DNA of 64,000 nucleotides from an uncultured Candidatus Saccharibacteria bacterium (GCA_964568535.1 CAZMPQ010000001.1:6183-70182), one strand, 5' to 3'. Shown: positions 6,507 through 61,600, counted from the stretch's first letter. Program-made: numbers and translations. The notes: a model not told the origin generated them from the letters alone.

Positions 6507-7007
6507 ATGACGCACATGGCCACAAAACGCATCGTCACGCTTACCGAAGCCGCACGCATCGCGCGGCGGGCTCGTTGGGCAGGCAAGCGCGTCGTTACGA
6601 CGAACGGCTGCTTCGACATCCTCCACGTCGGCCACATCCACAATCTGGAAGCCGCGCGAGCGCTTGGCGACCTCCTCATTGTCGGCGTAAACTCCGACGC
6701 ATCGGTAAGCTCGTTCAAAGGCCCAGGGCGGCCTATCGTGACCGCGCGCGAACGCGCCGAGGTTCTTGCCGCACTTCGGCCGGTCGATTATGTCCTCATT
6801 TTCTCTGAACCGACGCCGAACCGCTGGCTCGCGGCGGTCCGTCCGCACGTGCACGTGAAAGGCGGTGATCGACCGATGAGTCAGATCGTCGAACGTGACG
6901 TCGTTCGGCGTGCCGGCGGAAAGATCGTACTCCTCAAGACCATCGCCGGGAAATCGACGACGAACATCATCGGGCGTATCGCCCGGACGTTACGAAAGCG
7001 CTCCTGA
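6507..7007 (+). CDS. hldE: D-beta-D-heptose-1-phosphate adenylyltransferase (cytidylyltransferase-like; equivalent to HldE domain II, i.e. HldC)
   Basis: Carries KRVVTTNGCFDILHVGHIHNLEAARALGDLLIVGVNSD (the HxGH nucleotidyltransferase motif). The start at 6507 is a choice; 6516 and 6438 are also possible. Confidence 0.75.
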   Translation: MTHMATKRIVTLTEAARIARRARWAGKRVVTTNGCFDILHVGHIHNLEAARALGDLLIVGVNSDASVSSFKGPGRPIVTARERAEVLAALRPVDYVLIFSEPTPNRWLAAVRPHVHVKGGDRPMSQIVERDVVRRAGGKIVLLKTIAGKSTTNIIGRIARTLRKRS

Positions 7008-9166: not shown

Positions 9167-10026
9167 CCTTTTTTGAGCAACAGGTTGGTCATTCGCTCGT
9201 TCTCTCGTGGATAGCGCTCCAAAAGCTCGTCCGTTGTCACAGGACGATCGATGTCCACCTCAATGTCGTAGAACACAAATCCGAGTGCTGCCCATGCCGC
9301 AAGGAATTCCTGCGGATCCTCCCCCGCCTGTGCGAGGAGCATGGGGTAGAACTCCATGATCACCTTTACGTTTGGATTTTTCGCCAGCACATTCCGCATA
9401 CCGCGCAAGACCCGTCCTTCTGAACCTTCTACATCAATCTTCACGACAGCTATGCGCGGAGTTTGAGTGGAGAAAAATTCGTCTAACGGCAAAACTTCCA
9501 CCATGCGCGATGGTGCACCTTCCGCAAATCGGTCATAACCGAGGGAACTGTGCGGGCCGTTCTCGTAGAACGGCAACGAACCGCGTTTGTCGGAAAGCGC
9601 TTTCGGCACAAGGGTGACGTTCGCAAAGCCATTCGTTGCAATATTCTTCTCCAAGAACCCGAAGCTTCGCGGATTCGGCTCAAACGCAAAGACGCGTCCC
9701 GACGGACCGGCGAGTTTCGCCGCAAGGCACGCGTAGTAACCGATATCCGCGCCGATATCTAATACCGTGTCTCCTGTGCGGACCAATTTTCGCATGACGT
9801 CTGTCGTCCGCTCCTCAAACTTCGTAGCGTCTATGCCTTCGCGAACATCAACCTGGAGCGTGTATCCGTTCACCTCAACGACAGATGCCCGTGCCCTACC
9901 GGCGAGGAACTCTTGCAGGCGCGCCACCACGGGAAACCGCTTTTTGAGATGCAATCCGCCAAAAAGCGTTCGCCCCATGGCGTAGAGTACTCTCGATATC
10001 GGCTGGGTGATGCGGCGCATATGCAC
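9163..10026 (-). CDS. FkbM-family SAM-dependent methyltransferase
   Basis: Carries VLDIGADIGYYACLAAKLAGPSGRVFAFEPNPRSFGFLEKNIATNGFANVTLVPKAL. Confidence 0.75.
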   Translation of the reverse strand: MHMRRITQPISRVLYAMGRTLFGGLHLKKRFPVVARLQEFLAGRARASVVEVNGYTLQVDVREGIDATKFEERTTDVMRKLVRTGDTVLDIGADIGYYACLAAKLAGPSGRVFAFEPNPRSFGFLEKNIATNGFANVTLVPKALSDKRGSLPFYENGPHSSLGYDRFAEGAPSRMVEVLPLDEFFSTQTPRIAVVKIDVEGSEGRVLRGMRNVLAKNPNVKVIMEFYPMLLAQAGEDPQEFLAAWAALGFVFYDIEVDIDRPVTTDELLERYPRENERMTNLLLKKG

Positions 10027-10962: not shown

Positions 10963-11664
10963 TCAGAGCGTCGTCCGGAGCACGTGATACGCCTCTGCGA
11001 GCGTTCCGCCCATCTCCTTGCCATATATGCGCGCCAGGCGCTCCATATTCTCTACGCTCCGGGGAAACGGGTCTTTCCGCACCTGTGTCGTGTGGCAATG
11101 ATAAAGCTGTACTTTGAAATCCAACAAGTTGCCTTTTCCAAATTTTTCGCTCAGATCCAGATACGCGTTCGGCGTCCGCTGAGGACGGGAGCTCCAGGTA
11201 TACGGCTCAAAATATTCCAGCACGTGGTCCACGAAATGCCGCGCGGAGCGCGGAGTTGGCCGAAGTGCAGCTATGCATGCGTCGAACGTCGCGCGATGGT
11301 CCTGATTATAGCTGGACGACGCCGGCACAGCCATTATGGTGGGACGGAACTCCTCCAAGAGGTCGTCTAGGCGCTCCACGATGTCTTTCTGCGGGATAGC
11401 GTCGAGCTTTACATGGTCTTTCTGCACATACAGCACGCGCACATCCGCGCCCGTGAGCTTCTTTACCGCTTCAACCTCCTTCAAACGATCGGCTCCGCGC
11501 GTCTTCCCGGTAACAAGCTGACGGCTGTCGCCTACCCCCATGTAGAGGATAAGTACTTTTCCGCCCTCCTTCTTTACTTTGCCGATAAGCCCGCCGACGC
11601 CATCTGCTTCATCGTCAGGATGCGGAGCGACCACGAGAAGCCGCGCTGTGCGATCAATATGCAT
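10963..11664 (-). CDS. PIG-L/LmbE-family N-acetylglucosaminyl deacetylase
   Basis: Carries LLVVAPHPDDEADGVGG (the PIG-L zinc motif). I chose the start at M29; the longest ORF extends to 11748. Confidence 0.7.
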   Translation of the reverse strand: MHIDRTARLLVVAPHPDDEADGVGGLIGKVKKEGGKVLILYMGVGDSRQLVTGKTRGADRLKEVEAVKKLTGADVRVLYVQKDHVKLDAIPQKDIVERLDDLLEEFRPTIMAVPASSSYNQDHRATFDACIAALRPTPRSARHFVDHVLEYFEPYTWSSRPQRTPNAYLDLSEKFGKGNLLDFKVQLYHCHTTQVRKDPFPRSVENMERLARIYGKEMGGTLAEAYHVLRTTL

Positions 11665-24202: not shown

Positions 24203-24267
24203 GCACAGACAGGATAATCCAACTCTCGCCCGAATGGAACCCGTGCGCGAATTGCTGCGTGAATAGA

Positions 24268-24302
24268 CCCCGAGCGGCGTGCTACGAGCACGCCGCTCGG
24301 GG
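24268..24302. terminator. perfect 16-bp inverted repeat with a 3-nt loop (CCCCGAGCGGCGTGCT-ACG-AGCACGCCGCTCGGGG)
   Basis: Read directly from the sequence. It lies between the end of the surface-protein operon and the start of the CgeB-like gene. There is no strong T-tract, so it is either a stem-loop terminator or an RNA stability element. Confidence 0.4.
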
Positions 24303-24319
24303 CGTTTACCGTATCGCTC

Positions 24320-24397
24320 TTACTGGGACGTAGAACTCGGAGCTGGAGCCGAAGGAGTTGAGGTAACGTGGATGGGAGGTGGAAGGGGTGGTAGTCC
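24320..24397 (-). pseudogene. relic 3' end of a third small-partner gene (it encodes ...GLPPLPPPIHVTSTPSAPAPSSTSQ*)
   Basis: The minus-strand translation matches the C-terminal tail of the 26134..27117 protein (PPPPPPIHVTSTPPAPAQSSTSQ*). No corresponding N-terminal or central domain lies upstream of it. Confidence 0.55.
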
Positions 24398-24404
24398 CTC
24401 TTTA

Positions 24405-24752
24405 TTAGAATAAAGTCGGGTGAGCAAACATTTGAGAGGCACCATACATAAAAAAAGCTGTCGATACGAATACCCCCAAAGAAAAGAAGAGAAAAGAAAA
24501 GAAGAGAAAAGAAGAGCCCAATCTTCTTAGCTGTTCTCGAAATCGCTTTATGAAGAAGTTCACCAAGAAAAATGGTAAAGAAAAAACACTGATGATTTCC
24601 AAGATTAGTGAATAAATGTTTTCAAATGGAAAGAGCGCCTTTGGCAAGCTTGGGAATACATCTAACGAATAGGGAATCGTAAAAACTAACAATCCGACTA
24701 CTATGCCACCTAAAAGATTTCCGACATAAAACAAATTTAACTTTTTTTTCAT
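24405..24752 (-). CDS. hypothetical small Phe-rich membrane protein in a low-GC (~30%) patch
   Basis: A 115-aa ORF with three or four hydrophobic segments. It begins MKKKLNLFYVGNLLGGIVVGLL, similar to the partner-protein signal anchors. The local GC content is far below the window average. Confidence 0.35.
   Translation of the reverse strand: MKKKLNLFYVGNLLGGIVVGLLVFTIPYSLDVFPSLPKALFPFENIYSLILEIISVFSLPFFLVNFFIKRFREQLRRLGSSFLFFSFLFFSLGVFVSTAFFMYGASQMFAHPTLF
24481..24516. repeat. simple purine-rich repeat, roughly (GAAAAGAAGA)x3.5
   Basis: The sequence reads gaaaagaagagaaaagaaaagaagagaaaagaagag. Confidence 0.6.
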
Positions 24753-24781: not shown

Positions 24782-26137
24782 TCACCATTTGATTATCCCT
24801 TTAATTCTATAAGGGTCGAAGATGGGGTTTAGCTTAGAACTCCAAAGCATTTCAAAATCGCTTATATCTTGGGTACCCAAGTCAGTCTTGGGCGATACAA
24901 GACCGCAAGTGCTAGTGGAATTATCCATAATATTATTTCCTGTACTATGCGCCAGACCGAGTGCGTGCCCAAGCTCATGCGTAATAGTGCATTGTTTCAT
25001 TGAATTCGTATAAGGATCCATATAGTAAGTATTGAAAAGGATATGAGGTTGGTTTGGTGTGGTTGTAGGAACCCATAATCCTGCTTTTCCCATCCATTGA
25101 CCAACGGTCGAGCTGACGACGTCTACATATATATCCCAATCTGAACCAGATGTAGAGGTTGATTTCTTGAGATTCACATAGCTTGCAGTCGCGTCATTCC
25201 AAGTAATGATTGCGTTTAACATTTGCGCATCATATGGCGTAGAACTGCCTATTCTCATGATATATGGCGATGTGCTTGTATTGACGCCCGGCGGCGACCA
25301 CTCGGTATTGTCAGGACGTGACAAGAACGCCGTGTAATAATTGTCCGCATCAATATAGTCAGAAATCTTCGCACCTGTTCCTGAAGCGTTCTGCGTGGCA
25401 TGCCAGGGTCCGGCGTTCTCCGTAGAACTGTTGGCATCATCCAGCGGATACCACCCACCCCAGAAGTTCAATCTCATTGTGGAGGTCGGACTGCCAGTCT
25501 TCCAAGCACTGCTTGTGCTGTTGTTGTATATCGTGCTCGACGCCACCGTCACCGTCCCGCCGGTAATATACAGGCCGTAATCGTTATCGTGTATCGCTGA
25601 TTCCGTTACCGTCGTCGCGCCTCCCGTGCTGTATATCCCGTAGTCCGAAGCATAGGAGATGTCGGTATATCTCGTATTGAGCGTGCCGCCAGTAACGTAC
25701 ACGGTACTGCCTGCTGTGTTTCCGCCGTATCTCACGACGGTTCCTGCGAGAGTCGTGCTCGCGCCGGAGGTAATTTGAATATTTCCCCAATCCCCTGCGG
25801 CTCCCGTTGAAGTTCCATCTCCATTCAGATCCCCTCCCACGCTGTCGTCTTTGAAGGAGGTGAAATATACGAGGGTAGGGCTCAGTGCTCCTCCTTTCAC
25901 ATCAAGCTCTCCGTTCACGATGAGGGAGGTAGATGGTTTGAACTTGATGATGGTGCCGGGTTCAATGGTGATAGTCTTGCCTGCATTGATGGTGACGGTT
26001 GAGGAGACGATATATGGGCCTTCGGCTTTGGACCAGGTGGTGGAGGTTGCGATGGAGCCGGAGAGGGTGCTGGATGGCTTCGCCACGAGTGGTATGCATA
26101 CAAGCATACCACTTTGTTCTATGCGCTCACAGCTCAC
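24782..26137 (-). CDS. secreted parallel beta-helix plus metzincin zinc-metallopeptidase domain protein (a truncated paralog of the 1058-aa protein, lacking the LamG domains)
   Basis: It is about 85-95% identical to the C-terminal ~440 aa of the 27152..30328 gene product. It carries HELGHALGLAHS. An ATGA overlap couples it to the upstream partner gene. Confidence 0.6.
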   Translation of the reverse strand: MSCERIEQSGMLVCIPLVAKPSSTLSGSIATSTTWSKAEGPYIVSSTVTINAGKTITIEPGTIIKFKPSTSLIVNGELDVKGGALSPTLVYFTSFKDDSVGGDLNGDGTSTGAAGDWGNIQITSGASTTLAGTVVRYGGNTAGSTVYVTGGTLNTRYTDISYASDYGIYSTGGATTVTESAIHDNDYGLYITGGTVTVASSTIYNNSTSSAWKTGSPTSTMRLNFWGGWYPLDDANSSTENAGPWHATQNASGTGAKISDYIDADNYYTAFLSRPDNTEWSPPGVNTSTSPYIMRIGSSTPYDAQMLNAIITWNDATASYVNLKKSTSTSGSDWDIYVDVVSSTVGQWMGKAGLWVPTTTPNQPHILFNTYYMDPYTNSMKQCTITHELGHALGLAHSTGNNIMDNSTSTCGLVSPKTDLGTQDISDFEMLWSSKLNPIFDPYRIKGIIKW

Positions 26138-27117
26138 TGACTGGTTGATGACTGAGCAGGTGCTGGAGGCGTTGAGGTAACGTGGATAGGAGGCGGAGGG
26201 GGCGGAGTTGGTGGTTGGGGTGGAGGCGGATAAAATGGGGCGCAGTCGGGGTCTTGGGCGTCGGTGAGGTTGTCGAGGTCGTTGTCTTTGTTGTCACGAC
26301 AATTCACCTGATGGTCCTCTCGATAATATGGCCGGCAGTTGGGGTCGCCCTGATCGACAAGTCTATCTCCGTCATTATCTATGCCGTCGCGACAACTACT
26401 CCCTGAAGTTTCTGTTGTATCTTGTGGTAGTGGCGGTGGCGGCAATGTCTCTGGCACAGGACGGGGAGGTATGAGTTCAGCAAATTTATTGTGGACTGCC
26501 TGTTTCTCAGCTTGGGAGAGCGACTGGAATAAATTAGCGGCAGATTCGCCTGTTGTGCGTCCGTCAAATGGTATCTCATTCGGATACGCATTGAGTAGTT
26601 CGTATGTCCGCGCGTGTCGTAAAACGAGTTCTCTTAATTGCTCCTTACTCAAGTTGGCGTGCTCACTCACTACGGTCTTAGTCGCCGGATGAAAACCTAC
26701 AAAATACCATGGGCCAGCTTCATCGGGGAGATGAGTAGCTCCAAACAGATACGTTGTGCCGGGTGCAAGTTTATCCCCTTTTGTAGAATCCAAGCTCACA
26801 ACAATCCTATCCTCGGCAATACCTTTGATATTGTAAATAACCTCAACGTCATATTGTGTTCTTGATAAACCCAGTGAGTTATCGCTTCTTCCTGCTTCTG
26901 CAAGCACCTTGCCGGCAAATACATTTTGGTAATAACCAACCAACCTGCGGTTGTTATTGAAGTCAGTTGCCCACGTCGCGGCAATGCCGGATTCTCCCAT
27001 GTTCTTTACGCCTGAGTCAGTTGGTGTCTGAAAACCAACCTGCTGTACACCCCTCATCCCGAGATAGATTGCACCGAAAATCAAGATACTTCCAACGATA
27101 AATAGTCGTTTCTTCAT
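26134..27117 (-). CDS. secreted partner protein: signal anchor, a conserved domain of unknown function, two Cys-bracketed Asp-rich (TSP3-like calcium-binding) repeats, and a poly-proline C-terminal tail
   Basis: Starts MKKRLFIVGSILIFGAIYLG. Carries CRDGIDNDGDRLVDQGDPNC and CRDNKDNDLDNLTDAQDPDC, and ends PPPPQPPTPPPPPPIHVTSTPPAPAQSSTSQ. It is a paralog of the 38053..39054 gene. Confidence 0.6.
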   Translation of the reverse strand: MKKRLFIVGSILIFGAIYLGMRGVQQVGFQTPTDSGVKNMGESGIAATWATDFNNNRRLVGYYQNVFAGKVLAEAGRSDNSLGLSRTQYDVEVIYNIKGIAEDRIVVSLDSTKGDKLAPGTTYLFGATHLPDEAGPWYFVGFHPATKTVVSEHANLSKEQLRELVLRHARTYELLNAYPNEIPFDGRTTGESAANLFQSLSQAEKQAVHNKFAELIPPRPVPETLPPPPLPQDTTETSGSSCRDGIDNDGDRLVDQGDPNCRPYYREDHQVNCRDNKDNDLDNLTDAQDPDCAPFYPPPPQPPTPPPPPPIHVTSTPPAPAQSSTSQ

Positions 27118-27151
27118 GGTGATGGTTAATTATGTGATGACCCTATGGAAC

Positions 27152-30100
27152 TTATTGCCATTGAATGATGTTTTTCAATCGGTGCGGATCGAAAATAGGG
27201 TGCAGAGCGGGGGTCCAAAGCAATCGAAAATCGCTTATGTCTTGGGCACTTAGATTGGTCTGCGACGATCCTATCTGGCACGTCTGGTCCATTAAGTTGC
27301 CTTCCGGACTATGCGCCAATCCCAAAGCATGCCCGAGCTCGTGGGTGGTTACGCACTGCTTATTCATCTCGACGCCCATTCGCGCGGTATTGAAGTAAAT
27401 GTGAGCGATGCTAGTTGAAGACGGGATATAAAACCATGCCCAACCTCGAGGAACATAAAGCCCGGCCCAATCCAGTGTAGAACTCGTAATATCTGCCGCG
27501 GCCACATCCCACTGCGAGTTCGGGTACGAACTTGCCTTCTCTAAGTTAATATAACCTACGGTTGTATCATTCCAAGTATCAATGCCATCCTCCAATTGCG
27601 TCTGATATTGAGTAGAACTGCCCACCCGCATCACGTATGTTGATGTATTAGTGTAAACAGCTAACGGCGACCAAGTGTTAACATTAGGATGAGACAAATA
27701 CGCGGTGTAGTAATTGTCCGCGTCTATGTAATCGGATATTTTCGCTCCAGTCCCACTAGTATTCTGCGTAGCGTGCCACGGTCCAGCATTTTCCGTCGAG
27801 GTGTTCTTTTCGCTTGAGCCATCATAAGTATCGTCGAGCGGATACCATCCACCCCAGAAGTTCCATTTCATTGTGGAGGTCGGGCTGCCGGTTTTCCAAG
27901 CACTGCTTGTCGCGTTGTTATATATCGTGCTCGATGCCACCGTCACCGTCCCACCGGTAATATACAGACCGTAATCGTTGTCATGTATCGCTGATTCCGT
28001 TACCGTCGTTGCCCCTCCTGTGCTGTATATGCCGTAGTCCGAGGAGTAGGAGATATCGGTATATCGGGCGTTCAGCGTGCCTCCAGTCACGTAGATGGTA
28101 CTACTTGCAGTGCTTCCACCATAGCGGACAACGCTTCCTGCGATGGTAGTACTCGCCCCCGAGTTGATTTGGATATGCCCCCAATCCCCTGCCACCGGCG
28201 CTGTCGCTCCTCCGTCTCCATTCGTATCCCCACCCACACTGTCATCCTTGTATGACGTGAAATATACGAGCGTGGAGCTCAGTGCTCCTCCCTGCACATC
28301 AAGCTCTCCGTTCACGATGAGGGAGGTAGAGGGTTTGAACTTGATGATGGTGCCGGGTTCAATGGTGATAGTCTTGCCTGCATTGATGGTGACGGTTGAG
28401 GAGACGATATATGGGCCTTCGGCTTTGGACCAGGTGGTGCTGGTTGCGATGGTACCGGAGAGGAGGCCTCCGCAGCCGGAGGATTGGGCGCAGACGCGCC
28501 TGCCCTGACTACTGTTCCAGAGCTTCGTCACTTCGCCTGCGGTCAATGCGCGGTTCAGGACCACCACCTCGTCAATCATAGCAGAGATCTTTCCGTAACC
28601 GCCGCCTGAGGGGTAGCCGCCGTGGGCGCCGATGCCGGTGCCGGTGTCTACCGCCGAGGTGCCGTTCCCGGAGCCAGCGGCTGCCTCGGCCTTGAGGTCG
28701 TTCTGCACATAGAGGCGGAGGCTCGTGCCGTCGAAGGTGCAGGCGACGTGGTACCAGGTGGAAGTTGCGAGGCCGTTCCCGCCATTCGTCCAGGAGGCGG
28801 TCTCGTTCGCGGCGCCCCAGCGATTCCGTTGGCAATAAAGTGTCCTCGTGCTCCCGCCGGTATATTCAATGCCGTAGGCAACATCAGTGCCGCTGTCCAC
28901 GACGGAGACGATTTCCTGGTCTCCGGAGGCGATGCTGGCGAACTTGACCCAGGCCGCGAGAGACATGGCGCCCCCGGAGATACCGAGATTCTCCGACGCG
29001 TAAAGATACTTCGTCGTGTTGTCCGTCCCGAAGTCCGCGGCAGTGCCGAGCACGCCGGTTCCCGTTGCGGCGGGGCCGTAGTTCGTCAGGGTGTAGTGAT
29101 TGCCGCTCGCGTCGGCGGCGAAGTGATGGTCAGTATGGTAGAGCGCTCGGATCGCGCCGTCGGTGATCTGGAGATACGGCGATGGGTCCGTTTCCACCGT
29201 GAAATCAAATACATCCGCCGTCCCGAATTGCGTCCAGGAGGATGTGGCGAAAGTCACAGTGTCCTGCGCCCGCGCGCGCCAGTACCAGGACCCGGGCGTG
29301 ATAGAGGAAACGGTCGTTGACGCCTGTGCGCCAGGCGCGACTGGGGAGCTTGTCTGCGTCATTGGGCCGGCGAACGAGGTGCTCGTTGCGAGCTCCACCT
29401 GGACTATGAGCTGGTTCGTGGATGAGGAGTTCGGGATAGCCTTGAGCACGACGCTCGTCTCCGCCGTCGTTGCTCCTTCGGCGAGCGAGGTCGTACCGTT
29501 AGACTTGAACTGGAGGAGATCGCCGATGCTCGGCGGCGTGGACGACGTGCAGCCTACCGTAACGCAAATCGTATCCCCCGAACCGCTGTTCCAGAGCGCA
29601 TTGCGAGTAGAGGTGGAGATGCGGGTGTTCATGAAAAAGAGCTCATCGATATGGAAGTCACCGAGTGCAGCCGCGTTGCATACGGGATTCACGTTCGCCG
29701 AGCGGCCGTTCACGCAGATATCCGTCGTGAAGTTCGTCGTGTCACTGTCGCTCCCCGAGGTCACGATGGTGTTGTTCACATACCACTCTACCGAGCTTCC
29801 CGTACGGGTCAGGAGATGCCACTGCCAAGCGCCGACTGGCGGGCTGGAGGTGGTGTATTGCATCTCGCAGGGCGGCGTACCGTCCACGAACTCCAGGACG
29901 CCTGCGGCACAGGCCTGCGCACGGCTTATCTGTTCGATGCTGTCAGCTCCCGCACTACGGCGGCTGATCACGGCATCATCGTCCAGGGTCGCTTGTGCAT
30001 TAATCCAGAAACCGATGCTGAAATCACTGGAGAGGTCCATAGCGCTGGACGAGGCTCGGAACCAGCCGGTTCCCTGAGTGTCGCCGGCGTTGCCGAACCA

Positions 30101-30328
30101 ACCGGTCACGTAGGCGGTGCCGCTTGCGGTGAGGTTCCTACCGTTTCCTGAGGAATCGCTTGCATCCTCAAAGTGGTAGAGGGCGGTGACGGAGCTTGAG
30201 GGGATGTATACAGTGGCGGAGGCGGGGTGGGGGAAGAAAAACGCCGCCAAGATGGCGACGGTAGGGACGGCGAGGACAGCGGCGGACGTTATTCCACCGA
30301 ACGGAACGACCCTGGCGTTCCTGAACAT
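27152..30328 (-). CDS. very large secreted surface protein: signal peptide, two LamG_3 (concanavalin A-like) domains, an Ig/FN3-like region, a parallel beta-helix and a C-terminal metzincin (M10-like) catalytic domain
   Basis: Starts MFRNARVVP followed by a hydrophobic helix. The LamG_3 domain ends are ALYHFEDASDSSGNG...IDELFFMNTRISTSTRNALWNSG and ALYHTDHHFAADASGNH...IDEVVVLNRALTAGEVTKLWNSS. The beta-helix repeats include TGGATTVTESAIHDNDYGLYITGG. The zinc motif is THELGHALGLAHS, and the conserved C-terminus is FDPHRLKNIIQWQ. Confidence 0.75.
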   Translation of the reverse strand: MFRNARVVPFGGITSAAVLAVPTVAILAAFFFPHPASATVYIPSSSVTALYHFEDASDSSGNGRNLTASGTAYVTGWFGNAGDTQGTGWFRASSSAMDLSSDFSIGFWINAQATLDDDAVISRRSAGADSIEQISRAQACAAGVLEFVDGTPPCEMQYTTSSPPVGAWQWHLLTRTGSSVEWYVNNTIVTSGSDSDTTNFTTDICVNGRSANVNPVCNAAALGDFHIDELFFMNTRISTSTRNALWNSGSGDTICVTVGCTSSTPPSIGDLLQFKSNGTTSLAEGATTAETSVVLKAIPNSSSTNQLIVQVELATSTSFAGPMTQTSSPVAPGAQASTTVSSITPGSWYWRARAQDTVTFATSSWTQFGTADVFDFTVETDPSPYLQITDGAIRALYHTDHHFAADASGNHYTLTNYGPAATGTGVLGTAADFGTDNTTKYLYASENLGISGGAMSLAAWVKFASIASGDQEIVSVVDSGTDVAYGIEYTGGSTRTLYCQRNRWGAANETASWTNGGNGLATSTWYHVACTFDGTSLRLYVQNDLKAEAAAGSGNGTSAVDTGTGIGAHGGYPSGGGYGKISAMIDEVVVLNRALTAGEVTKLWNSSQGRRVCAQSSGCGGLLSGTIATSTTWSKAEGPYIVSSTVTINAGKTITIEPGTIIKFKPSTSLIVNGELDVQGGALSSTLVYFTSYKDDSVGGDTNGDGGATAPVAGDWGHIQINSGASTTIAGSVVRYGGSTASSTIYVTGGTLNARYTDISYSSDYGIYSTGGATTVTESAIHDNDYGLYITGGTVTVASSTIYNNATSSAWKTGSPTSTMKWNFWGGWYPLDDTYDGSSEKNTSTENAGPWHATQNTSGTGAKISDYIDADNYYTAYLSHPNVNTWSPLAVYTNTSTYVMRVGSSTQYQTQLEDGIDTWNDTTVGYINLEKASSYPNSQWDVAAADITSSTLDWAGLYVPRGWAWFYIPSSTSIAHIYFNTARMGVEMNKQCVTTHELGHALGLAHSPEGNLMDQTCQIGSSQTNLSAQDISDFRLLWTPALHPIFDPHRLKNIIQWQ

Positions 30329-30349: not shown

Positions 30350-30358
30350 CCCCCCCCC
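30350..30358. repeat. homopolymeric tract, C9 on the plus strand (G9 on the coding strand), 21 nt upstream of the ATG of the 1058-aa gene
   Basis: Read directly. On the coding strand the context is CTTGCCTCGGGGGGGGGCTTTGGAGATACAATCGAATCATG, i.e. TTGCCT, then 19 nt including G9, then TACAAT, then 6 nt, then ATG. Confidence 0.8.
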
Positions 30359-38052: not shown

Positions 38053-39054
38053 TTACTGCCCGGTTGAGGTCGGAGCCGGTGCCGGAGGCGTTGAAGTGGG
38101 CGCAGTAGGAGATGGCGCGAAGTTCTCCGGTGGGAGTGGAGCGGAAGGCGGAGGAGGTGGGGGTTGTGGCGGATAGAATTGGGCGCAGTCGGGGTCGGCG
38201 GAGTCGGTGAAACCGTCGCGATCGTTGTCGATGTTGTCTCCACAAAGGGCTGGGAGGTCTTCTCGGAGAGCCCCACCACAGTCGGGATCTGCTTTATCAA
38301 TTAGCCCATCTTTGTCGTTATCTTCTTTATCACCGCAACGACTCCAAGAATTCTCAGGTATACTATCGCGGCTTGTAGAAATGGGAGGCAAAATCTCCGG
38401 CACCGGGCGTGGAGGTATCAACTCCTGGAATTTGTCGTACACTGCTCGCTTGTTCGCTTCAAAAAGGGATTGGAAAGAGTTTATCGTCCGGCCCTTTTGA
38501 ATATCAATATCTCTCAATATCTCGTTCGGATATGCGTTGAGTAATTCATACGTCCTTGAGTGTTTTTTTACAATGTCGGTCAGTTCTTCGTTTGTAAGAC
38601 GCGAACTCTGGCTTATGGACACATGGAAGGCGTTCGGGGAACCAACGTAATACCACGGTTCTGTTTCGGCCCAGTGACGAGCGGCAAGGATATACGTGTT
38701 GCCCGGGACAAGTCGAGCGCCCTCAAATGCTTCTATATCAACTTGTATCCTACCACTCGCAGTGCCTTTGATGTTGTAAAGAACTTCTACTTCGTACTGA
38801 TAATGTGCAAGCTGACTACCTCCAGGGAGTGTTTGAGGATTGTTTCCTCTCTCTGCGAGGACTTTCGCCGCAAAGACCTCTTGGGCGTAGCCCACTAAGA
38901 CGCGCGGATTGTCGTAGTTGATTGCGTATGAAGCTGCGGGGCTAGAATTTTCTTCGTTTTGCCCATTATCAAGGGGTAATTCAGAGTTCACGGCGACATA
39001 GAAACCAACGATAACTGCTACACTGCTTACGATGATGGCTAGTTGCCTTTTCAT
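38053..39054 (-). CDS. secreted partner protein (paralog of the 26134..27117 gene): signal anchor, a conserved domain, two Cys-bracketed Asp-rich repeats and a poly-proline tail
   Basis: Starts MKRQLAIIVSSVAVIVGFYVA. Carries RTYELLNAYPNEI, CGDKEDNDKDGLIDKADPDC and CGDNIDNDRDGFTDSADPDC, and ends PPQPPPPPPSAPLPP...TPPAPAPTSTGQ. Confidence 0.6.
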   Translation of the reverse strand: MKRQLAIIVSSVAVIVGFYVAVNSELPLDNGQNEENSSPAASYAINYDNPRVLVGYAQEVFAAKVLAERGNNPQTLPGGSQLAHYQYEVEVLYNIKGTASGRIQVDIEAFEGARLVPGNTYILAARHWAETEPWYYVGSPNAFHVSISQSSRLTNEELTDIVKKHSRTYELLNAYPNEILRDIDIQKGRTINSFQSLFEANKRAVYDKFQELIPPRPVPEILPPISTSRDSIPENSWSRCGDKEDNDKDGLIDKADPDCGGALREDLPALCGDNIDNDRDGFTDSADPDCAQFYPPQPPPPPPSAPLPPENFAPSPTAPTSTPPAPAPTSTGQ

Positions 39055-39079: not shown

Positions 39080-42000
39080 TTACCATTGAATGACGTGCTT
39101 CATCCGGTGTGGGTCAAAGAAGTAAGACGGGCTCCAGAGAAGATTGAAATTGAATAAATCTAAAATGCCTAATGTTGTTTGGGGCTCAAGAATTCCTGGG
39201 AAGTAATCGCATGAATGACGCGCCATAATACTATCCCCGTATTCAGTGTGCGATAAACCTAACGCATGACCAATCTCATGGGTTGCAACACATTGTTGCG
39301 AGTCTGAGTAAGAATTCATTCCATTTGTGTTGAATATAATGTGAGCGGTACTCGTAACAAATGGATACCACAATCCCGCCCACGATGAGGTGTCTACTGT
39401 GATATCAGCCACGTATATATCCCAGGTATCACTCGATGACGCACTTGCATTGACGACCATCACATAGCCCGATGACGAAGCGTTCCATGTGCTCATACCA
39501 TCAATAAGTTCTGATTGGTATTGCGTAGAGCTTCCCACTCTCATTTTCAGAGTACTAGAATTCACTCCAGGCGGAGACCATGTTGACTCACTAGGACTCG
39601 CAATAAATGCACTCATGTATGGACTAATGTCAATGTAATCCGATACGTCATCACCTGCTCCTGATGGGTTTTGACCAGAATGGTAAGGTCCTGCGTTGTC
39701 GGTAGATGTAGAGATATCATCAAGCGGAAACCATCCTCCCCAGAAGTTGTTGGTCATCGTAGATGTCGGCCCCGATGCATCGTGGAGCGCACCGTAGCCT
39801 GCAGTCGCATTGCTGAAGACGGTACTTGAAGACATCGTCACATTGTTGCCGCTCGTAACTCTTACGCCGTTGTAGTTGTCGTGTATTGAGGCGTATATGA
39901 TAGTCGTTGTTCCGGCCGTAAGGTACAAACCGTGCGTTTCTGCATAGGAGACATCGCTGTTTCTGATGTTCAGCACTCCCCCGTTGTTGTAGATATTTGC
40001 ATCACTTGCCGCATCTCCTCCGCCATATCTGACAACGCTTCCCACAAGCGTACTGCTCGCACCTGTATTGAACTTGATATGTCCCCAGTCACCTACCGCC
40101 GGCTGCGTCGTACTGTTGTTTGTGTCCCCTCCTACCGCATCATCGTGATACGACGTGAAATATACCAAGGTTGAGCTCAGGGCTCCTCCCTTCACATCAA
40201 GCTCTCCGTTCACGATGAGGGAGGTATTGGGTTTGAACTTGATGACGGTGCCGGACGCTACGGTGATTTTCACGCCGGAGGCGATGGTAGCGGTACTTGT
40301 GACGATGTATGGGGAGAGGTTGTGGGTCCAGGTGGTGCTTGCGGTGATAGTGCCGGAGAGGAGGTTCGCCGTGCCGCACCCTGCCGTCGTACACACTTCC
40401 GCACCGCTTCCGCTGTTCCAGAGCGCATTCCGAGTACTCGTGGATATCCGCGACGTGGACAGGAATAGTTCGTCAATATGCCAGCTGTGCTTGTAGTCGG
40501 CGTTCAAGCCGTTCACCTGGAGATCGGTGGAGTAGTTCGTGGTTGCGCTGTCGGTGAACGAATGTTGGCGCACGTTGTCCACGTAATAATCAACGATCGA
40601 GCCGCTGCGAAGCACTGTTACCCAGTACCACGTGGATGTCGCGAGAGAATAGGAGAAGTTCCCCTTGCAAGTCCCGTTGTGCCTGAACTCAAAGTTGTTT
40701 CCCGCGCACTGGGCGCCATACATCACCGCGTCATTGCTTGTTCCGCCCGTCGTCCTGCCGACAAGGGAAGTGTCGTTCAGGGCTTCCATCGGCTTCATCC
40801 AGAACCCAATAGAGAAGTCCCCCGAAAGGTCCATAGCGGATGAGGACACTGTCCAATATCCGGAACCCTGCGTAATGCCTGCGGTTGATAGCTTGCCCTC
40901 GGTAGATCCTGTCCCCCACGACGTGAGGTGGCGCGCGTTCCCCGAGGCGTCGGACGTGTCCTCAAAATGATACAGGCCGACAACGTTTGAAACCTCTACC
41001 CGCGGATTGGGAACGGTCTCCACCACGACGTCCACCACATTGTCTGTGCCGAATTGTCGCCAAGAGGATGTGGCGTTCGTCGCGGTATCCAGCGCTCTCC
41101 CTCGCCAATACCAGAATCCATCGGGGATGGCCGAGATGGTTGTTGTGGCATACGAGCTCGGAGTCACTGCGGTGCTTGTGCCGTGAAGTGCGTTCGTGAA
41201 CGACGTGCTCGTAGAAAGCTCAACTTGAAGCATGAGGTTGTTTGACGATGAGGAGTTCAAAAAAGCTTTGAAGAATACCGTGCTCTCCGCCGTGGTCGCG
41301 CCCTCGCTCAATGGGGTCGTGCCATCAGCTTTGAACTGCGTTGTTGAGGAGATGACGGGGATAGAGGAGGTCGCACATCCTAGTGTAGCGCATATCTCCG
41401 CCCCACTACCACTTGCCCAGAGCGCATCTTTCGTGCTCGTCGTGATGCGAGCGTTCATGAAAAAGAGTTCGTCCATAAGATAGGCGTGGTTGTACGATGA
41501 GCAACCGCCACCCGAGAGACCAAGGGCGCCGATACAGAGGTCGCTGCTGATATTTCCCGTCTCGCTGTCGGTGAACGGGAATACTACGCTGTTGTTCACA
41601 TAATAATCGGTGTTCGTTCCCGTTCGGGCGATGAGGAACCAGTACCAGGTGTTCGTCGAGAGCGTGTATGCCGAAGTATGGCACGTGTTGTTGTGCTTGA
41701 ACTCAACGTGGCTCCCCGCGCATGTATTCCCATAATACACGCCTTCGCGGGAAGAACCGGATATCCGATCAATGAACGGCGTGTCGTTCAGAGATACCTG
41801 TGGGTATATCCAGAATCCGATAGTGAAGTCGCCCGACAGATCCATAACTGATGACGATGCCCGGAGGAATGCGCCGCTCGCGAAGTTTGCCGCATTGGAC
41901 AGCGTACCAGTTGTGAACGTGGTCCCGGAAGCGTTTACGAGGTCGTGTCGGTTCGCCGATGACGTAACGGAGTCTGTCAGGTTCTCCATGTGGTAGAGGG

Positions 42001-42139
42001 CGGTGATGTTGGGGACGTACACGGCGGCGGAGGCGAAGCTTGGAAACAAAAACGCCACCAGAGTGGCGGCGAGGAACGCGGTGGAGAGAGCAACAAGCGT
42101 TGTTCTTTGTGACGGAACGACCCTGGCGTTCCTGAACAT
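39080..42139 (-). CDS. very large secreted surface protein with the same LamG, LamG, Ig/FN3-like, beta-helix and metzincin architecture (paralog of the 27152..30328 gene)
   Basis: I chose the start at the conserved MFRNARVVP; the ORF extends to 42199 across the poly-G tract. Carries ALYHMENLTDSVTSSANRHDL...MDELFFMNARITTSTKDALWASG, ATHEIGHALGLSH, DSIMARH (the Met-turn) and FDPHRMKHVIQW. Confidence 0.75.
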   Translation of the reverse strand: MFRNARVVPSQRTTLVALSTAFLAATLVAFLFPSFASAAVYVPNITALYHMENLTDSVTSSANRHDLVNASGTTFTTGTLSNAANFASGAFLRASSSVMDLSGDFTIGFWIYPQVSLNDTPFIDRISGSSREGVYYGNTCAGSHVEFKHNNTCHTSAYTLSTNTWYWFLIARTGTNTDYYVNNSVVFPFTDSETGNISSDLCIGALGLSGGGCSSYNHAYLMDELFFMNARITTSTKDALWASGSGAEICATLGCATSSIPVISSTTQFKADGTTPLSEGATTAESTVFFKAFLNSSSSNNLMLQVELSTSTSFTNALHGTSTAVTPSSYATTTISAIPDGFWYWRGRALDTATNATSSWRQFGTDNVVDVVVETVPNPRVEVSNVVGLYHFEDTSDASGNARHLTSWGTGSTEGKLSTAGITQGSGYWTVSSSAMDLSGDFSIGFWMKPMEALNDTSLVGRTTGGTSNDAVMYGAQCAGNNFEFRHNGTCKGNFSYSLATSTWYWVTVLRSGSIVDYYVDNVRQHSFTDSATTNYSTDLQVNGLNADYKHSWHIDELFLSTSRISTSTRNALWNSGSGAEVCTTAGCGTANLLSGTITASTTWTHNLSPYIVTSTATIASGVKITVASGTVIKFKPNTSLIVNGELDVKGGALSSTLVYFTSYHDDAVGGDTNNSTTQPAVGDWGHIKFNTGASSTLVGSVVRYGGGDAASDANIYNNGGVLNIRNSDVSYAETHGLYLTAGTTTIIYASIHDNYNGVRVTSGNNVTMSSSTVFSNATAGYGALHDASGPTSTMTNNFWGGWFPLDDISTSTDNAGPYHSGQNPSGAGDDVSDYIDISPYMSAFIASPSESTWSPPGVNSSTLKMRVGSSTQYQSELIDGMSTWNASSSGYVMVVNASASSSDTWDIYVADITVDTSSWAGLWYPFVTSTAHIIFNTNGMNSYSDSQQCVATHEIGHALGLSHTEYGDSIMARHSCDYFPGILEPQTTLGILDLFNFNLLWSPSYFFDPHRMKHVIQW

Positions 42140-42165: not shown

Positions 42166-42177
42166 CCCCCCCCCCCC
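42166..42177. repeat. homopolymeric tract, C12 on the plus strand (G12 on the coding strand), 26 nt upstream of the conserved start of the 1039-aa gene
   Basis: Read directly. On the coding strand the context is GTGCGGGGGGGGGGGGTTCCTCCGTGGTATCGTTCAATCATCATG. With 12 G the tract is in frame with an upstream ATG at 42199. Confidence 0.8.
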
Positions 42178-55041: not shown

Positions 55042-55222
55042 CGAGCAGTAAATAAAAAGTCGTTATTGCCACACACCACAACACAAGAGAAATTTGTCGC
55101 TCGGGATTTGAACGGGAAAGGGGTCGGGGAAACGGGAGTTTCCCCGTGGAGGAAAACAGCCCCGCCAAATGGCGGGGCGCTAGAAACCGAGAGGTGTCTA
55201 GGGAGCGAATGAAATGAGCGAC

Positions 55223-57622: not shown

Positions 57623-58612
57623 ATGCCCGAACCAATTCTTGTATCAGGAATCCAGCCCTCCGGCCGTCTCCATATCGGGAACTACTTGGGCGCGCTCAAA
57701 AACTTCGTTGACCTGCAGAACTCGCGGAAATATTCCTGCTACTTCTTCCTCGCGGACCTGCACTCGCTCACCGAGTATCCCGCAGGCGCTACGGAGCAGA
57801 AAAAGCGTATTCTAGAACTCACCGCTGATTTTCTCGCGGCTGGTTTGGACCCGAAGAAATCACTCATCTACCAACACTCGCAGATCCCCGCGCATAGCGA
57901 AATGGCGTGGATTTTGAACACCATCACGCCGATGGGCGAACTGGAACGAATGACGCAGTACAAGGACAAGTCCGTGCGCCAACATGAGGTGAACGCTGGC
58001 CTCCTCACCTATCCGACGCTTATGGCCGCGGACATTTTGCTCTACGATGCGAAGTATGTCCCTGTCGGGAACGACCAGGACCAGCACCTTGAGCTCACAC
58101 GCACGCTCGCGCGAAAGTTCAATAAAAAATTTGGGAAGACGTTCGTTGAACCGGAAGGACTCCACACCGCGACTCCGCGTGTGATGTCTTTGAAAGACCC
58201 GTCAAAGAAGATGTCTAAATCTCAGCCGGAGACGTGCCTTTTTCTGGATGAATCCCCCGTTGAGCTAGAGAAGAAGATAAAAAGTGCAACGACCGACTCC
58301 GGAAGCGATGTGCGGTACGATGCGAAGGAAAAGCCGGGCATCTCGAACTTACTTGATATCTACTGCGGCGTAACCGGAAAAACTGTTCCGCAGGCGGTCA
58401 AAGAATTCCGCGGCAAGCAATACGGCGCCTTCAAGCAAAAAGTTGCGGAGGCGGTTGTGAAACATCTCGCGCCGTTCCGCACGAAAAAGGCAGCGCTCAT
58501 GAAAAAACCGACGGTGCTCGCGAAAGTGCTCGCAACCGGCTCGGCAAAAGCGGCGAAAGTCGCAGACGCGAAGATCGCAGGAGTGAAGGAGAAGGTCGGG
58601 CTTGCGCTCTAG
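57623..58612 (+). CDS. trpS: tryptophanyl-tRNA synthetase
   Basis: Carries the HIGH-class motif GRLHIGNYLG, plus KMSKS and GNDQDQHLELTR. Confidence 0.85.
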   Translation: MPEPILVSGIQPSGRLHIGNYLGALKNFVDLQNSRKYSCYFFLADLHSLTEYPAGATEQKKRILELTADFLAAGLDPKKSLIYQHSQIPAHSEMAWILNTITPMGELERMTQYKDKSVRQHEVNAGLLTYPTLMAADILLYDAKYVPVGNDQDQHLELTRTLARKFNKKFGKTFVEPEGLHTATPRVMSLKDPSKKMSKSQPETCLFLDESPVELEKKIKSATTDSGSDVRYDAKEKPGISNLLDIYCGVTGKTVPQAVKEFRGKQYGAFKQKVAEAVVKHLAPFRTKKAALMKKPTVLAKVLATGSAKAAKVADAKIAGVKEKVGLAL

Positions 58613-61600
58613 ACCTTTCGCACGCCGAGCCAGATATCAACGCCGTCCAGTTTTGCCTGGATCTCGGCGGTAAACTTCCCTTTCTTATACTCTATTGTCT
58701 TTGCGCCTACCTCGGTTTTGAGGAATTTTTCGTTCTCCTGAACGATCGCGCCGACGCTCGGCGCTTCTACCATCAGCACAATGGCGTCCTTCGCCTGAAG
58801 CCCGGCATTCTGCCGCAACTCCTGTACCATCCGCACGAGGTCGCGCAACGTTCCCTCGGCTTTGAGCTCCGGTGTAATGGTTGTATCGAAAACAACCTCG
58901 TCGTTCTTTGTCGCATCATCCCATACAATTTCCTTCACGTTTATCTCGTCTTTCAGGATACTGATGAGTTCTTTGTTGCTCTTGACACCTGATACCTGAT
59001 ACCTGACACGAACGGATGCGAGCGGCTGACGAACCTTAATACCAAGTTCCGCGCGCTTCGCGAGCGCTACGCTTGCAATGCGCCGTATTTCGCCCATTGC
59101 GGCAACCAGTTTCGCATCCATTTGTTTTTTGTCTAACGCGGGCCAGGTATCCAGATGCACCGACTCCTTTTCGCCCAATCCGTGATAGATGCTTTCCGCA
59201 AAGAACGGCGTGAATGGGGCCATCAGTTTCGCGGTCTCGCGCAATACATGCGCAAGCATTGCGGACGCGGCTTCGTAATCGGCTTTTGAATCGGGCTTCT
59301 GCAAACGCCGGCGCGAGCGGCGGATGAACCAGCGCGAAAGGTCGTCCACAAGCGTCTCTATCGCGAGTGCCGCCTCGCGTATCTCGTACTGCTCTAATTG
59401 TTTCGTCGCTTCGGCTATCGTCTCGTTCAACCGCGCTAGTATCCAACTATCCAACACATTTCCTGATACCTGATACTTGACACCTGACACCTTGGCGGCA
59501 TATGTCCGCCAAAAGATCAGCGAGTTGTAGACGATGAGGTGCACGCGCCGGAACGTTTTTTGGATGTCCACTTCGTCGAAGTTTTTCGGTTCGCCGAGCG
59601 GCGAATTCGTATAGAGATACCAGCGCACGGCGTCCACGCCATATTTTTCGATGACCGCGAACGGCTCCACGATATTCCCCTTGGACTTGCTCATCTTCTG
59701 CCCGTTCTTATCGTTCACAAGCCCGAGGCAGACGACGTTCTTGAACGGCGCGGGGTATCCGAGCGCGGTCGCGATTGCAACGAGCGTATAGAACCAGCCA
59801 CGCGTCTGGTCGATGCCTTCAGAAATATAGTCCGCAGGAAATGCTGACGGGCGCTTCCCGCGCTTCACGAACGGGAAGTGCTCTTGTGCGTATGGCATTG
59901 CACCCGAGTCGTACCATACGTCTGCGACCTCCGGCACACGACGCATCTCTCCCTTGCATTTCTTGCATGGGAGCGTGAGTTCGTCCGCGAACGGCCGATG
60001 GAGATCTACTTCGCCGGTATCGTTCCGCGGGATAGTTTTGAGCTCCAATGGGACCACTTCTCCGGTGCGCATGAACACATCGTTATGCAGCGATTTCTTC
60101 TCGGCTGTTTCTTTCTCCGTCCATCCATTCGCGATCTGCGAGAGCATCCAGATGGTATCTTCATGGCTCACCAAAAGTATCCGTTTCCCGGCATACGCCT
60201 TCTCGGTCCCTTGCAAGAAGTCCCATGCGCGCGTACGAACATCGCGAAGCGACTCGGCGCGTGGCACGGCATGTTCGCTGAATCGCATCTCCTGCTCGGG
60301 AATTTTTTTCTGATACTCCCCCACTGGCCGCCCAGACAGTTCCGCAAGTTGTATTTCACGAAGTCGCTTATCGAACAGAACTTTTTTAATGCCGAGCTCT
60401 TTTGCAACAATGGCCGCGGTTTCTTTCGTTCGAAGGATGTCAGATGCGATGATGACGTCTATCTTTTCCTTTTTGAGCCTCTTCGCGGCTTGCTTCACCT
60501 GATCTTTTCCGAGCGTTGAGAGGTGAAATCGCTGATTGCCCGAGTCAATGATGTGTTTGATGTTTCCTTCTGCCTCTCCGTGCCGAAGTGCGAAATAGGC
60601 ATTTTTTGCCCTCTTCCCGCGCGCGGAAAGTTCGTGCAAGCTTCCGATCACTTCGCGCGTATCGCACTTCTTGCACTCCCAAATTGGAAGCGGTACGCCC
60701 CAGTAGCGTTCGCGAGACAGGTTCCAGTCCTTCGCTTCGCGGAGCCACTCACCAAAACGGCCTTCTTTGATATGATCCGGCACCCACGTGATGCCCTTAT
60801 TGTTCGCGAGCAGTTCTTTCCGAAGCTTGGACATCGCGATGAACCACGACGTCCGCGCGTAGTACAAGACCGGCGTTCCGCATCGCCAGCAAAATGGATA
60901 TTCGTGCTTATACTTCTCTATGCGCAGGAGGTTCTTGTTCTTTGTAAGATGTGCGAATATCTTATCCTCGGTTTCTTTCGCCTTTGCGGACATGCCCGCA
61001 AGCCCGCCGGGAACTTCTTTCTTAAATATGCCCTCTTCCGTTACGGTGTGATGTTGCGGCAAGCCCACCTTCACGCCAAGTTGGTAGTCGTCCTCGCCGT
61101 ACATTACAGCGGTATGCACCACGCCCGTGCCATCCGTTGTTGTCACGAAGCTTGCAGGATATACCTTGTATGCCGCCTCGTTCTTCAGTGCCAAGATTTT
61201 GAACAGCGGTTCGTATTCCAGGCCAACAAGGTCTTCGCCGCTCACTTTGCCGATAACATCGTATTCGGTTTTGCCAAGCACCGCGGGCGCCAATTCTTCC
61301 GCTACCACATATGTTTCTTTCGCGCTCTTCGGCCGCACGAGCGCATATTTCACTTTTTCGCCCACTGCAAGCGCGACATTTCCCGGCAGCGTCCACGGCG
61401 TCGTCGTCCACGACAGAATAAAGAGCGGACCGTCTGTTTTAAAATGCGGCCTTGATAGTACTTTGAACTTCAGATAGACCGATTGGTCCTCTACTTCCGC
61501 ATATCCTTGGGCCAATTCGTGCGATGAAAGCGCCGTTCCGCACCGCGAGCACCACGGCACGACTTTGTGGCCTTTGTAGAGCAATTTCTTCTTCGCGATC

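Follow-up and report, generated by a model that had tools for sequence, protein, structure and literature searches.

A 5'-truncated, conserved copy of a secreted metalloprotease gene next to its full-length paralogue in an uncultured Candidatus Saccharibacteria bacterium

Truncated gene copies that lie close to an expressed full-length gene have been described in different types of bacterial loci. In Salmonella, the main rhs gene and its orphan share 95% identity over 522 bp, and the orphan, which has no initiation or export signals, is expressed only once it is fused to the main gene (PMC3967940). The pilE/pilS system consists of one expression locus with a G-quadruplex element nearby and up to 19 promoterless silent pilS copies, and the vlsE/vls system has a contiguous array of around 15 cassettes with conserved ends and internal variable regions (both PMC4534519). 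Proteases of the metzincin type may be encoded together with a cognate inhibitor, as in Listeria, where the TIMP-like lipoprotein Tim accompanies the metzincin Mtz (PMC8235301). Here, we describe a locus in a stretch of 64,000 nucleotides from an uncultured Candidatus Saccharibacteria bacterium (GCA_964568535.1, CAZMPQ010000001.1:6183-70182; the whole stretch is called the window below), in which a full-length metalloprotease gene, A, and its partner gene are followed by a truncated copy of A that we term B. Taken together, it is very probable that B represents an old paralogue, truncated at its 5' end, of a secreted LamG/beta-helix/MMP-like metalloprotease, that it arose by segmental tandem duplication, that its beta-helix has repeatedly been converted with that of A and a core of about 90 nt among A, B and a third copy C, that the protease domains have diverged to saturation and that B is under purifying selection. 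With more reserve, we favor a function of B as a standby module that would be activated by recombination.

A truncated copy and its identity to the full-length gene

Coordinates are those of the whole 64-kb window, and A, B, C, the two partner genes and the small gene ORF115 all lie on its minus strand. The genes and the repeated tracts are:

27152..30328, minus strand: gene A, full-length, 1058 aa, with a Sec-type signal peptide, two LamG domains, a beta-helix and an MMP-like metzincin domain with HELGHALGLAHS (from the open reading frame, its translation and Pfam)
26134..27117, minus strand: partner gene 1, 327 aa, with an N-terminal transmembrane helix, an NTR/TIMP-like OB domain (about residues 55-215), two acidic double-disulfide repeats and a Pro-rich tail
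24782..26137, minus strand: open reading frame (ORF) B, a 5'-truncated copy with beta-helix and MMP/snapalysin-like metzincin only, 451 aa from a GTG
39080..42139, minus strand: gene C, third paralogue, full-length, 1019 aa from an ATG, with signal peptide, two LamG domains, beta-helix and metzincin
38053..39054, minus strand: partner gene 2, 333 aa, downstream of C
25880..26066, minus strand: high-identity block, corresponding to 28277..28463 in A, 180 of 187 positions identical
25475..25700, minus strand: second, older tract, 87-90% identical to A at offset 2394; the stretch between it and the first block is 75-77% identical

A and C are each followed by a partner gene of about 330 aa. Searches with tblastn and blastn within the 64 kb identified A, B and C as the sole copies of the family, with B alone being truncated. 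A sequence-only reading of the window had described B as a copy of the C-terminal part of the 1058-aa gene that has lost the signal peptide and the LamG domains, and this is borne out: the alignment covers the last ~427 residues of A, and Pfam and the translation of B reveal neither of the two features. The same reading placed the copies at a constant offset of 2400 bp and noted that 25861..26045 differs from A at only a few positions. The differences are indeed few (177 of the 185 bases are identical), and they are found at an offset of 2397; at 2400, the matches drop to the chance level of 56 in 185. The copies are in register at 2397 bp, or 799 codons, and at 2394 past a 3-nt indel. The description of a near-identical repeat of 1.3 kb with the remainder at about 90% was wrong. 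Overall identity is 73% over ~1276 aligned nt and it is graded, with values of 92, 94, 77, 75, 87, 90, 80, 71, 64, 52, 43, 66 and 65% in consecutive 100-nt bins from the 5' end of B, and blastn joins 897 nt at 79.6% identity. Homology of B to A starts at around 26072, and the longest exact run of 108 nt (25935..26042) lies inside the 187-nt block. At the protein level, A and B share 89% identity in the beta-helix and 52% in the metzincin core, the latter being barely higher than the values for A and C (48%) and for B and C (44%). The conserved stretch of about 100 nt does occur in the third copy as well, where 40141..40250 matches 28243..28352 of A in 97 of 110 positions and 25846..25955 of B in 93 of 110. 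The start of B overlaps the stop of partner gene 1, although the letters are GTGA and not ATGA as had been read. Thus, the duplication is real and its first description was overstated.

The reading frame of B runs through 451 codons without a stop. In an alignment of 15 family members, B keeps all 30 invariant and all 19 near-invariant columns, including the zinc motif. This motif, HEXXHXXGXXH, reads HELGHALGLAH in A and B and HEIGHALGLSH in C, and its residues H387, E388, H391 and H397 are invariant in the 15 members; a methionine follows the motif (NIMD in B, NLMD in A) and is probably that of the Met-turn. In the unconverted C-terminal half of B the proportion of nonsynonymous differences (pN) is 0.28, compared with a proportion of synonymous differences (pS) of 0.84. 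Pfam assigns B to M43 with 26.0 bits (cut-off 23) and gene A to Laminin_G_3 (7e-19) and Peptidase_M10 (30.3 bits, cut-off 24). The AlphaFold2 model of B has a beta-helix and a domain that matches snapalysin (TM-score 0.76), MMP-3, MMP-8, MMP-13 and karilysin in Foldseek, and a sequence search of B against the chains in the PDB gave no match.

Hydrophobic N-terminal leaders are present in A, C and the related proteins P0002, P0003, P0024, P0029 and P0030, and B has none. The candidate start codons of B are a GTG that overlaps the partner stop and an ATG that lies inside the stem of a hairpin (hp1, see below), with no Shine-Dalgarno site. Since such sites are rare across the gene starts of the window, their absence before B is uninformative. 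Several genes of the window have a -10-like box (TACAAT, TATAAT) 6-25 nt from the ATG, which suggests leaderless mRNAs or mRNAs with very short leaders in this organism. The public annotation of B (P0001; gene A is P0050) uses the ATG at 26107 and gives a protein of 441 aa without overlap to partner gene 1. A frameshift fusion of partner 1 and B was also considered, and here the frame of B is open for just 53 codons upstream with no start codon in that stretch; a slippery site was not searched for.

Age, conversion and origin of the copy

We compared A, B and C with the syntenic gene of a second genome (GCA_964632585.1, locus L024), in which a methyltransferase gene, a gene for a 1053-aa protease and a 331-aa partner gene follow in this order. 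The synonymous divergence of A and B rises from a pS of 0.03-0.06 in the first 60 codons to 0.8-0.9 in the protease domain. Saturation of synonymous sites is seen in every pair over the C-terminal half (pS 0.81-0.93; 0.84-0.89 for A-B and A-C). Nonsynonymous divergence (dN) of the protease domain is the same for A and B (0.35) as for A and the L024 gene (0.37), and thus the protease domain of B dates back to the time when the two lineages split. The beta-helix gives synonymous divergences (dS) of 0.50 for A-B, 1.09 for A-C and 2.4 for A and L024. Third codon positions of A and B are identical at a fraction of 0.93-0.97 in the first 60 codons, and in codons 31-60 the fraction is 0.87 for A and C and 0.54 for A and L024. 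The longest run of codons for the same amino acid without a silent change comprises 34 codons, a length that was reached in none of 100,000 permutations (p < 1e-5). The mosaic pattern is far beyond chance. Judged from these alignments, the gradient in pS, the third-position identities and the permutation test demonstrate gene conversion in at least two A-B tracts of different age and in a core of about 90 nt shared with C. The proposal that the repeat is a usable substrate for recombination is supported.

A diversity-generating retroelement was rejected as the source of the variation: the seven mismatches of the block are not adenine-specific and the block does not lie at a C-terminal variable region, with the limit that not all ORFs were scanned for a reverse transcriptase. 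A separate short identity exists between A and C, whose first ~28 nt of coding sequence (ATGTTCAGGAACGCCAGGGTCGTTCCGT) are the same (30301-30328 and 42112-42139). The upstream regions and the rest of the signal peptides differ between A and C, and the start of the L024 gene is different as well. The shared start may be another small homogenized block.

The origin of B can be traced in the sequence around its two ends, where the following features are found:

26088..26113, minus strand: hairpin hp1, 10-bp stem and 6-nt loop, 20 nt past the stop of partner gene 1 and within the first 17 codons of B
24405..24752, minus strand: ORF115, gene for a small multi-pass membrane protein, 35% GC, placed where a second partner gene would be expected
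24320..24391, minus strand: partner-tail remnant, non-coding, would encode PPLPPPIHVTSTPSAPAPSSTSQ and a stop, out of frame with ORF115; the repeat is 74% identical
24267..24303, minus strand: hairpin hp2, homologue of hp1, terminator-like with a GC-rich stem of 17 bp

Past ORF115, 1.8 kb further downstream, the end of partner gene 1 is found a second time, and the repeat comprises the Pro-rich tail, the stop, the hairpin and about 25 nt of flank. The remnant of the tail matches the tail of partner 1 in 20 of 23 amino acids (tblastn, E 1.5e-5). The region of hp2 folds with -41.6 kcal/mol over 81 nt (z -4.9), and the alignment of hp1 and hp2 reveals three compensatory base-pair changes, so that both copies have retained the hairpin structure. 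The annotated ATG of B at 26107 is located within the 5' arm of the hp1 stem. That hp1 acts as an intrinsic terminator of the canonical type is not supported for the coding strand, as it has no U-tract and a terminator scan flagged the opposite strand alone. In a scan of the region for promoter consensus sequences, sites were no more numerous than in shuffled sequence.

The second copy of tail and hairpin after ORF115 is the mark of a segmental tandem duplication. The duplicated unit very probably comprised the beta-helix, the protease domain, the partner gene, the partner tail and the hairpin, and ORF115 later took the place of most of the second partner copy, so that only the second tail and hairpin survive behind it. 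With the junction of the duplication at around 26072, the first ~24 codons of B read through the former 3' flank of partner 1 and its hairpin. The L024 locus retains a trace of the same arrangement (10997-11085). About 50 nt right after the partner stop encode STALIVNGELDVRGTSSTGQ followed by a stop, which is a fragment of the beta-helix fused to the end of the partner tail, and these nucleotides are closer to the copies of the window than to the protease gene of L024 itself. A copy at the position of B is thus ancestral and has been deleted in the L024 lineage.

ORF115 has a GC content of 35% in a genome of 57% GC. Only five homologues of 94-119 aa were found among 1.84 billion representative proteins. 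One of them (locus L027, 7541-7885) lies 32 nt downstream of a gene for a 1349-aa protein with LamG and LCAT-lipase domains, and relaxase and TrwB-like genes are located around it. These findings point to a recurrent pairing of a large LamG exoprotein with a small membrane protein, which may be mobile. The possibility that ORF115 is a decayed partner copy was discarded: tblastn gave no similarity to the partner, and ORF115 has homologues of its own.

Partner proteins, poly-G tracts and relatives of the locus

The two partner proteins are 47% identical. The model of the partner (predicted local distance difference test score 74.7, with most of the core above 85) has an OB/NTR domain, predicted as an OB-type beta-barrel with flanking helices as in the NTR fold. 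Its top four matches in Foldseek are complexes of TIMP-1 and TIMP-2, and the best matches are TIMPs and other NTR modules. Pfam gave no match for the partner, neither to TIMP nor to NTR; its acidic double-disulfide repeats correspond to NF033662. A metagenome scan with the partner alignment returned four loci, which match the Cys-rich repeat alone.

Pairs of this kind are known from Listeria (Mtz/Tim, PMC8235301) and, in principle, from Tannerella (KLIKK peptidases and potempins, PMC9890683), where the gene for an MMP-like metzincin adjoins that of a small membrane-anchored protein as it does here. The catalytic domain modeled for B matches karilysin in addition to snapalysin and MMPs, and the partner has a predicted NTR/TIMP-like fold. 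There are distinct differences, however. The partner is anchored by a transmembrane helix, whereas Listeria Tim has a lipobox, and it lacks the N-terminal Cys1, which chelates the catalytic zinc, and the conserved disulfides that define TIMPs, partner 1 having no cysteine before residue 242. Unlike Tim and the potempins, the partner, a putative inhibitor, carries acidic disulfide repeats and a Pro-rich tail. The protease gene comes first here, while potempins are encoded upstream of their peptidases (PMC9890683).

Upstream of the two full-length genes we found two homopolymers:

30350..30358, minus strand: G9 tract, 22-30 nt upstream of the ATG of A, between TTGCCT (-35-like) and TACAAT (-10-like)
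42166..42177, minus strand: G12 tract, 27-38 nt upstream of the ATG of C

They are the only runs of G or C of at least 8 nt in the 64 kb, and the observed count was reached in none of 100 shuffles. The L024 gene has a G8 at the same place (6777-6784) and the more distant relative P0003 (L019) a C10 upstream (9981-9990); the still more distant members P0029 and P0024 have no such tract. Contingency loci typically have a homopolymer of at least 8 nt in the 5' or promoter region of a gene for a surface protein. Such a tract is present at both A and C, and G9 and G12 may be regarded as candidate slipped-strand phase switches. The resemblance to the poly-G/C contingency loci of Neisseria, Bordetella and Campylobacter (PMC1891110, PMC8355987) lies in tracts within the promoter-like region of two full-length surface-protease genes. 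The difference is the organism, a candidate-phyla-radiation bacterium, and a literature search gave no report of phase variation for that group.

A, B and C lie inside a cluster of sugar-nucleotide and glycosyltransferase genes on the minus strand that extends over 2-47 kb of the window. The only known RNA family in the window is a tRNA-Leu. The isoleucyl-tRNA synthetase is 81% identical to an enzyme of a 'Candidatus Parcubacteria bacterium', with further matches in Paceibacterota; it is encoded at 58609-62112 (1167 aa) and has a histidine-phosphatase domain (PF00300), as do all listed homologues from Paceibacterota.

Relatives of the proteases occur in different genomic contexts. The closest relative of B outside the contig, P0004 (L018 1515-4205, 544 aa), is 45% identical to B and has no signal peptide; its gene is located after a gene for a 221-aa membrane protein and before a partner homologue, in a similar glycan cluster. 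P0029 (L028/L029 4001-5683), a more distant beta-helix-metzincin, is encoded inside a type IV pilus cluster, among T2SSE/F, several N_methyl pilin and prepilin peptidase genes. L024 contains at 9-1927 a partner-like gene with four Cys-rich repeats that is overlapped by a LamG-only ORF. This ORF resembles the N-terminus of C, has neither beta-helix nor protease and is hence an N-terminal fragment, with a truncation opposite to that of B.

A standby module among its alternatives

We tentatively propose, as the likeliest reading but with somewhat less than even confidence, that B is an 'orphan' standby module and not an independently secreted enzyme. B is positioned beyond the conserved hairpin at the end of the unit of A and partner 1 and has no export signal of its own. 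The sole route to a secreted B product would then be one RecA-type crossover in the 187-nt block. Such an event would delete 2,397 bp, comprising the protease domain of A and partner gene 1, and it would create a hybrid with the signal peptide, the LamG domains and the start of the beta-helix from A, the protease domain of B and ORF115 downstream. A crossover simulated in the 108-nt exact run gives an in-frame ORF of 1049 aa. Selection acting on the recombinants would keep B intact, and this model thus explains the long-term constraint on a copy without export signal. The earlier idea of an expressed copy with a silent or partial cassette is tenable in this form only, with B as a promoterless, export-less spare.

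Several points weigh against this proposal. The proteins A, B and C and their partners form singleton clusters in the public protein collection, all of them from one 86,882-bp NCBI contig, an exact look-up of the proteins of the window in a contig index gave no match, and recombinants have not been observed. In related genomes, no full-length gene was found to carry a protease domain of the B type, the best match outside the contig being 45% identical. The GTGA overlap is a common form of translational coupling and Shine-Dalgarno sites are rare, so that B could be translated as it is, and hp1 without a U-tract may not terminate transcription. A cognate 'immunity' role of ORF115 is doubtful, as it has no relation to the TIMP-like partner and a member of its family is also found behind a LamG-lipase gene. 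The junction at 26072 is also what would be expected from a 5' deletion of a once full-length B, although this requires an extra event. Finally, a short-read assembler could mis-pair the paths through the 108-nt node and thereby swap the downstream halves of A and B.

The constraint on B has to be weighed against a simpler history, in which B is an ordinary partial paralogue or relic that has no role of its own and was full-length or otherwise useful until fairly recently. Its open frame would then reflect past selection and patching from A by gene conversion, and recombination would be an incidental form of concerted evolution within a gene family prone to rearrangement. We consider this rather unlikely. 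In its favor, the family is rich in truncations and rearrangements, such as the LamG-only ORF and the deleted B-like relic of L024 or P0004 without signal peptide, and gene conversion has been demonstrated in the conserved beta-helix alone. However, the protease domain escaped conversion, its synonymous sites are saturated, and it has still kept every invariant residue with a pN far below pS. Divergence between the repeats of tail and hairpin amounts to about 26-35%, which speaks for an old junction and for a B that has long been truncated; the relic in L024 implies that a copy was at this site before the lineages split. The same purifying selection would be expected if B is expressed as it stands, either coupled to partner 1 via the GTGA or from the ATG at 26107, with a product that is held or exported through the TIMP-like partner or acts inside the cell. 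The 4-nt overlap of start and stop, a genome generally without Shine-Dalgarno sites, the missing U-tract of hp1 and the fact that P0004, likewise without a signal peptide, adjoins a partner homologue in L018 are all in line with this. Against it stand the hydrophobic leaders that A, C and the five listed relatives have, and a role in the cytoplasm is not obvious for an MMP-like protease that carries a beta-helix of the carbohydrate type. Furthermore, the ATG is buried in the stem of hp1, which is conserved by compensatory changes as a structure of the 3' end. We consider expression of B in its present form unlikely.

An analogy to pilE/pilS or vlsE had been drawn by the sequence-only reading. 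We regard a programmed antigenic variation of this type, with A as expression site and B and C as donors for frequent segmental conversion that would diversify an exposed antigen, as very improbable. The likeness is limited to a promoterless-looking, 5'-truncated copy without export signal near the full-length, expressed gene and to non-reciprocal homologous exchange in conversion tracts; the poly-G tracts upstream of A and C are suggestive of contingency behavior as well. The analogy fails on the number of cassettes, on internal anchors, on the origin of the expressed variable region and on the G-quadruplex element. There is one partial copy and no array in the 64 kb, compared with 15-19 cassettes in Neisseria and Borrelia (PMC4534519), and this single copy is conserved at its 5' end only. 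Conserved and variable segments do not alternate, and the exchanged part is the conserved beta-helix and not the variable part. In the divergent C-terminal region the longest exact match between A and B is 16 nt, so that segmental conversion would find no internal anchors in the protease domains. Synonymous divergence of the protease domain of A is saturated with respect to B as well as C, and the variable region of the expression site is thus not a mosaic of cassette sequence. B also keeps a complete catalytic domain. A regular-expression search of the window for G-quadruplex motifs found a single one at 55114..55136, far off the locus, G9 and G12 being single tracts, and the 17-bp flanking repeats are absent here. 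It is more improbable still that the duplication is an artefact of assembly, in which a repeat of a metagenome-assembled genome was collapsed or wrongly joined. All of the sequence stems from one contig of such a genome with no second assembly, and the exact repeat of 108 nt could indeed mislead an assembler. A collapse yields one copy, though, and cannot explain two copies that are 27% diverged with several indels. The ORFs of A and B are both intact, the exact run ends 30 nt short of the junction at ~26072, which is flanked by B-specific sequence, and the independent genome L024 keeps a relic at the same site. At most, mis-joining would have exchanged the downstream halves of A and B.

The genomes of candidate-phyla-radiation bacteria are tiny, and the prevailing view is that these bacteria live as episymbionts attached to host cells; to our knowledge, hardly anything has been reported on how they vary their surface. 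The locus described here encodes large secreted MMP-like proteases, the full-length ones paired with membrane-anchored TIMP-like proteins, within a cell-envelope glycan cluster. It has a truncated, conserved copy placed such that one crossover would swap the catalytic domain, and homopolymers where phase switches usually sit. It is conceivable, if doubtful, that 24-42 kb as a whole serves as the contingency locus of a surface metalloprotease that faces the host. Poly-G switching of two full-length genes would then be combined with a recombination-activated orphan (B and ORF115) that could replace the protease domain of A and remove its TIMP-like partner. If true, the 'orphan' logic of the Rhs and contact-dependent inhibition (CDI) systems would be applied to a Sec-secreted pair of protease and inhibitor. 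Should sequencing reads reveal A::B hybrids or variation in tract length, the range of two classic contingency mechanisms would widen to include a new phylum and a new type of gene pair, a protease with an inhibitor-like partner. If they do not, the locus would still illustrate clearly how a partial duplication undergoes mosaic concerted evolution.

The comparison with the Rhs/CDI orphans, namely the rhs-CT/rhsI and cdiA-CT/cdiI modules downstream of the main genes (Poole et al. 2011, PMC3150448; Koskiniemi et al. 2014, PMC3967940) makes both the parallels and the limits of the standby proposal clear. In both cases a full-length gene for an exported protein is followed by a small gene, cognate in Rhs/CDI, and by a 5'-truncated copy, behind which lies a different small gene. 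This copy retains some of the conserved region next to a divergent C-terminal domain and lacks an export signal. Main gene and orphan share a near-identical block, 96% over 187 nt here and 95% over 522 bp in Salmonella, in which one crossover would fuse the two in frame and delete the first small gene. In contrast to Rhs/CDI loci, no Rhs/YD or CdiA domain and no DPxGL or VENN boundary motif is present (Pfam). Pfam yields LamG, beta-helix and metallopeptidase families only and NCBIfam one sub-threshold match to a metalloprotease, and thus the locus is not a member of the Rhs/CDI family. The C-terminal domains of A, B and C belong to one diverged enzyme family (44-52% identical) and are not unrelated toxins, and export uses a Sec-type signal peptide. 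The small genes differ as well: A is followed by the TIMP-like membrane protein partner 1, and B by ORF115, which is a real but unrelated membrane protein gene. With these differences in mind, the locus seems to resemble the orphan spare modules known from bacterial toxin loci more closely than antigen switching of the pilin type.

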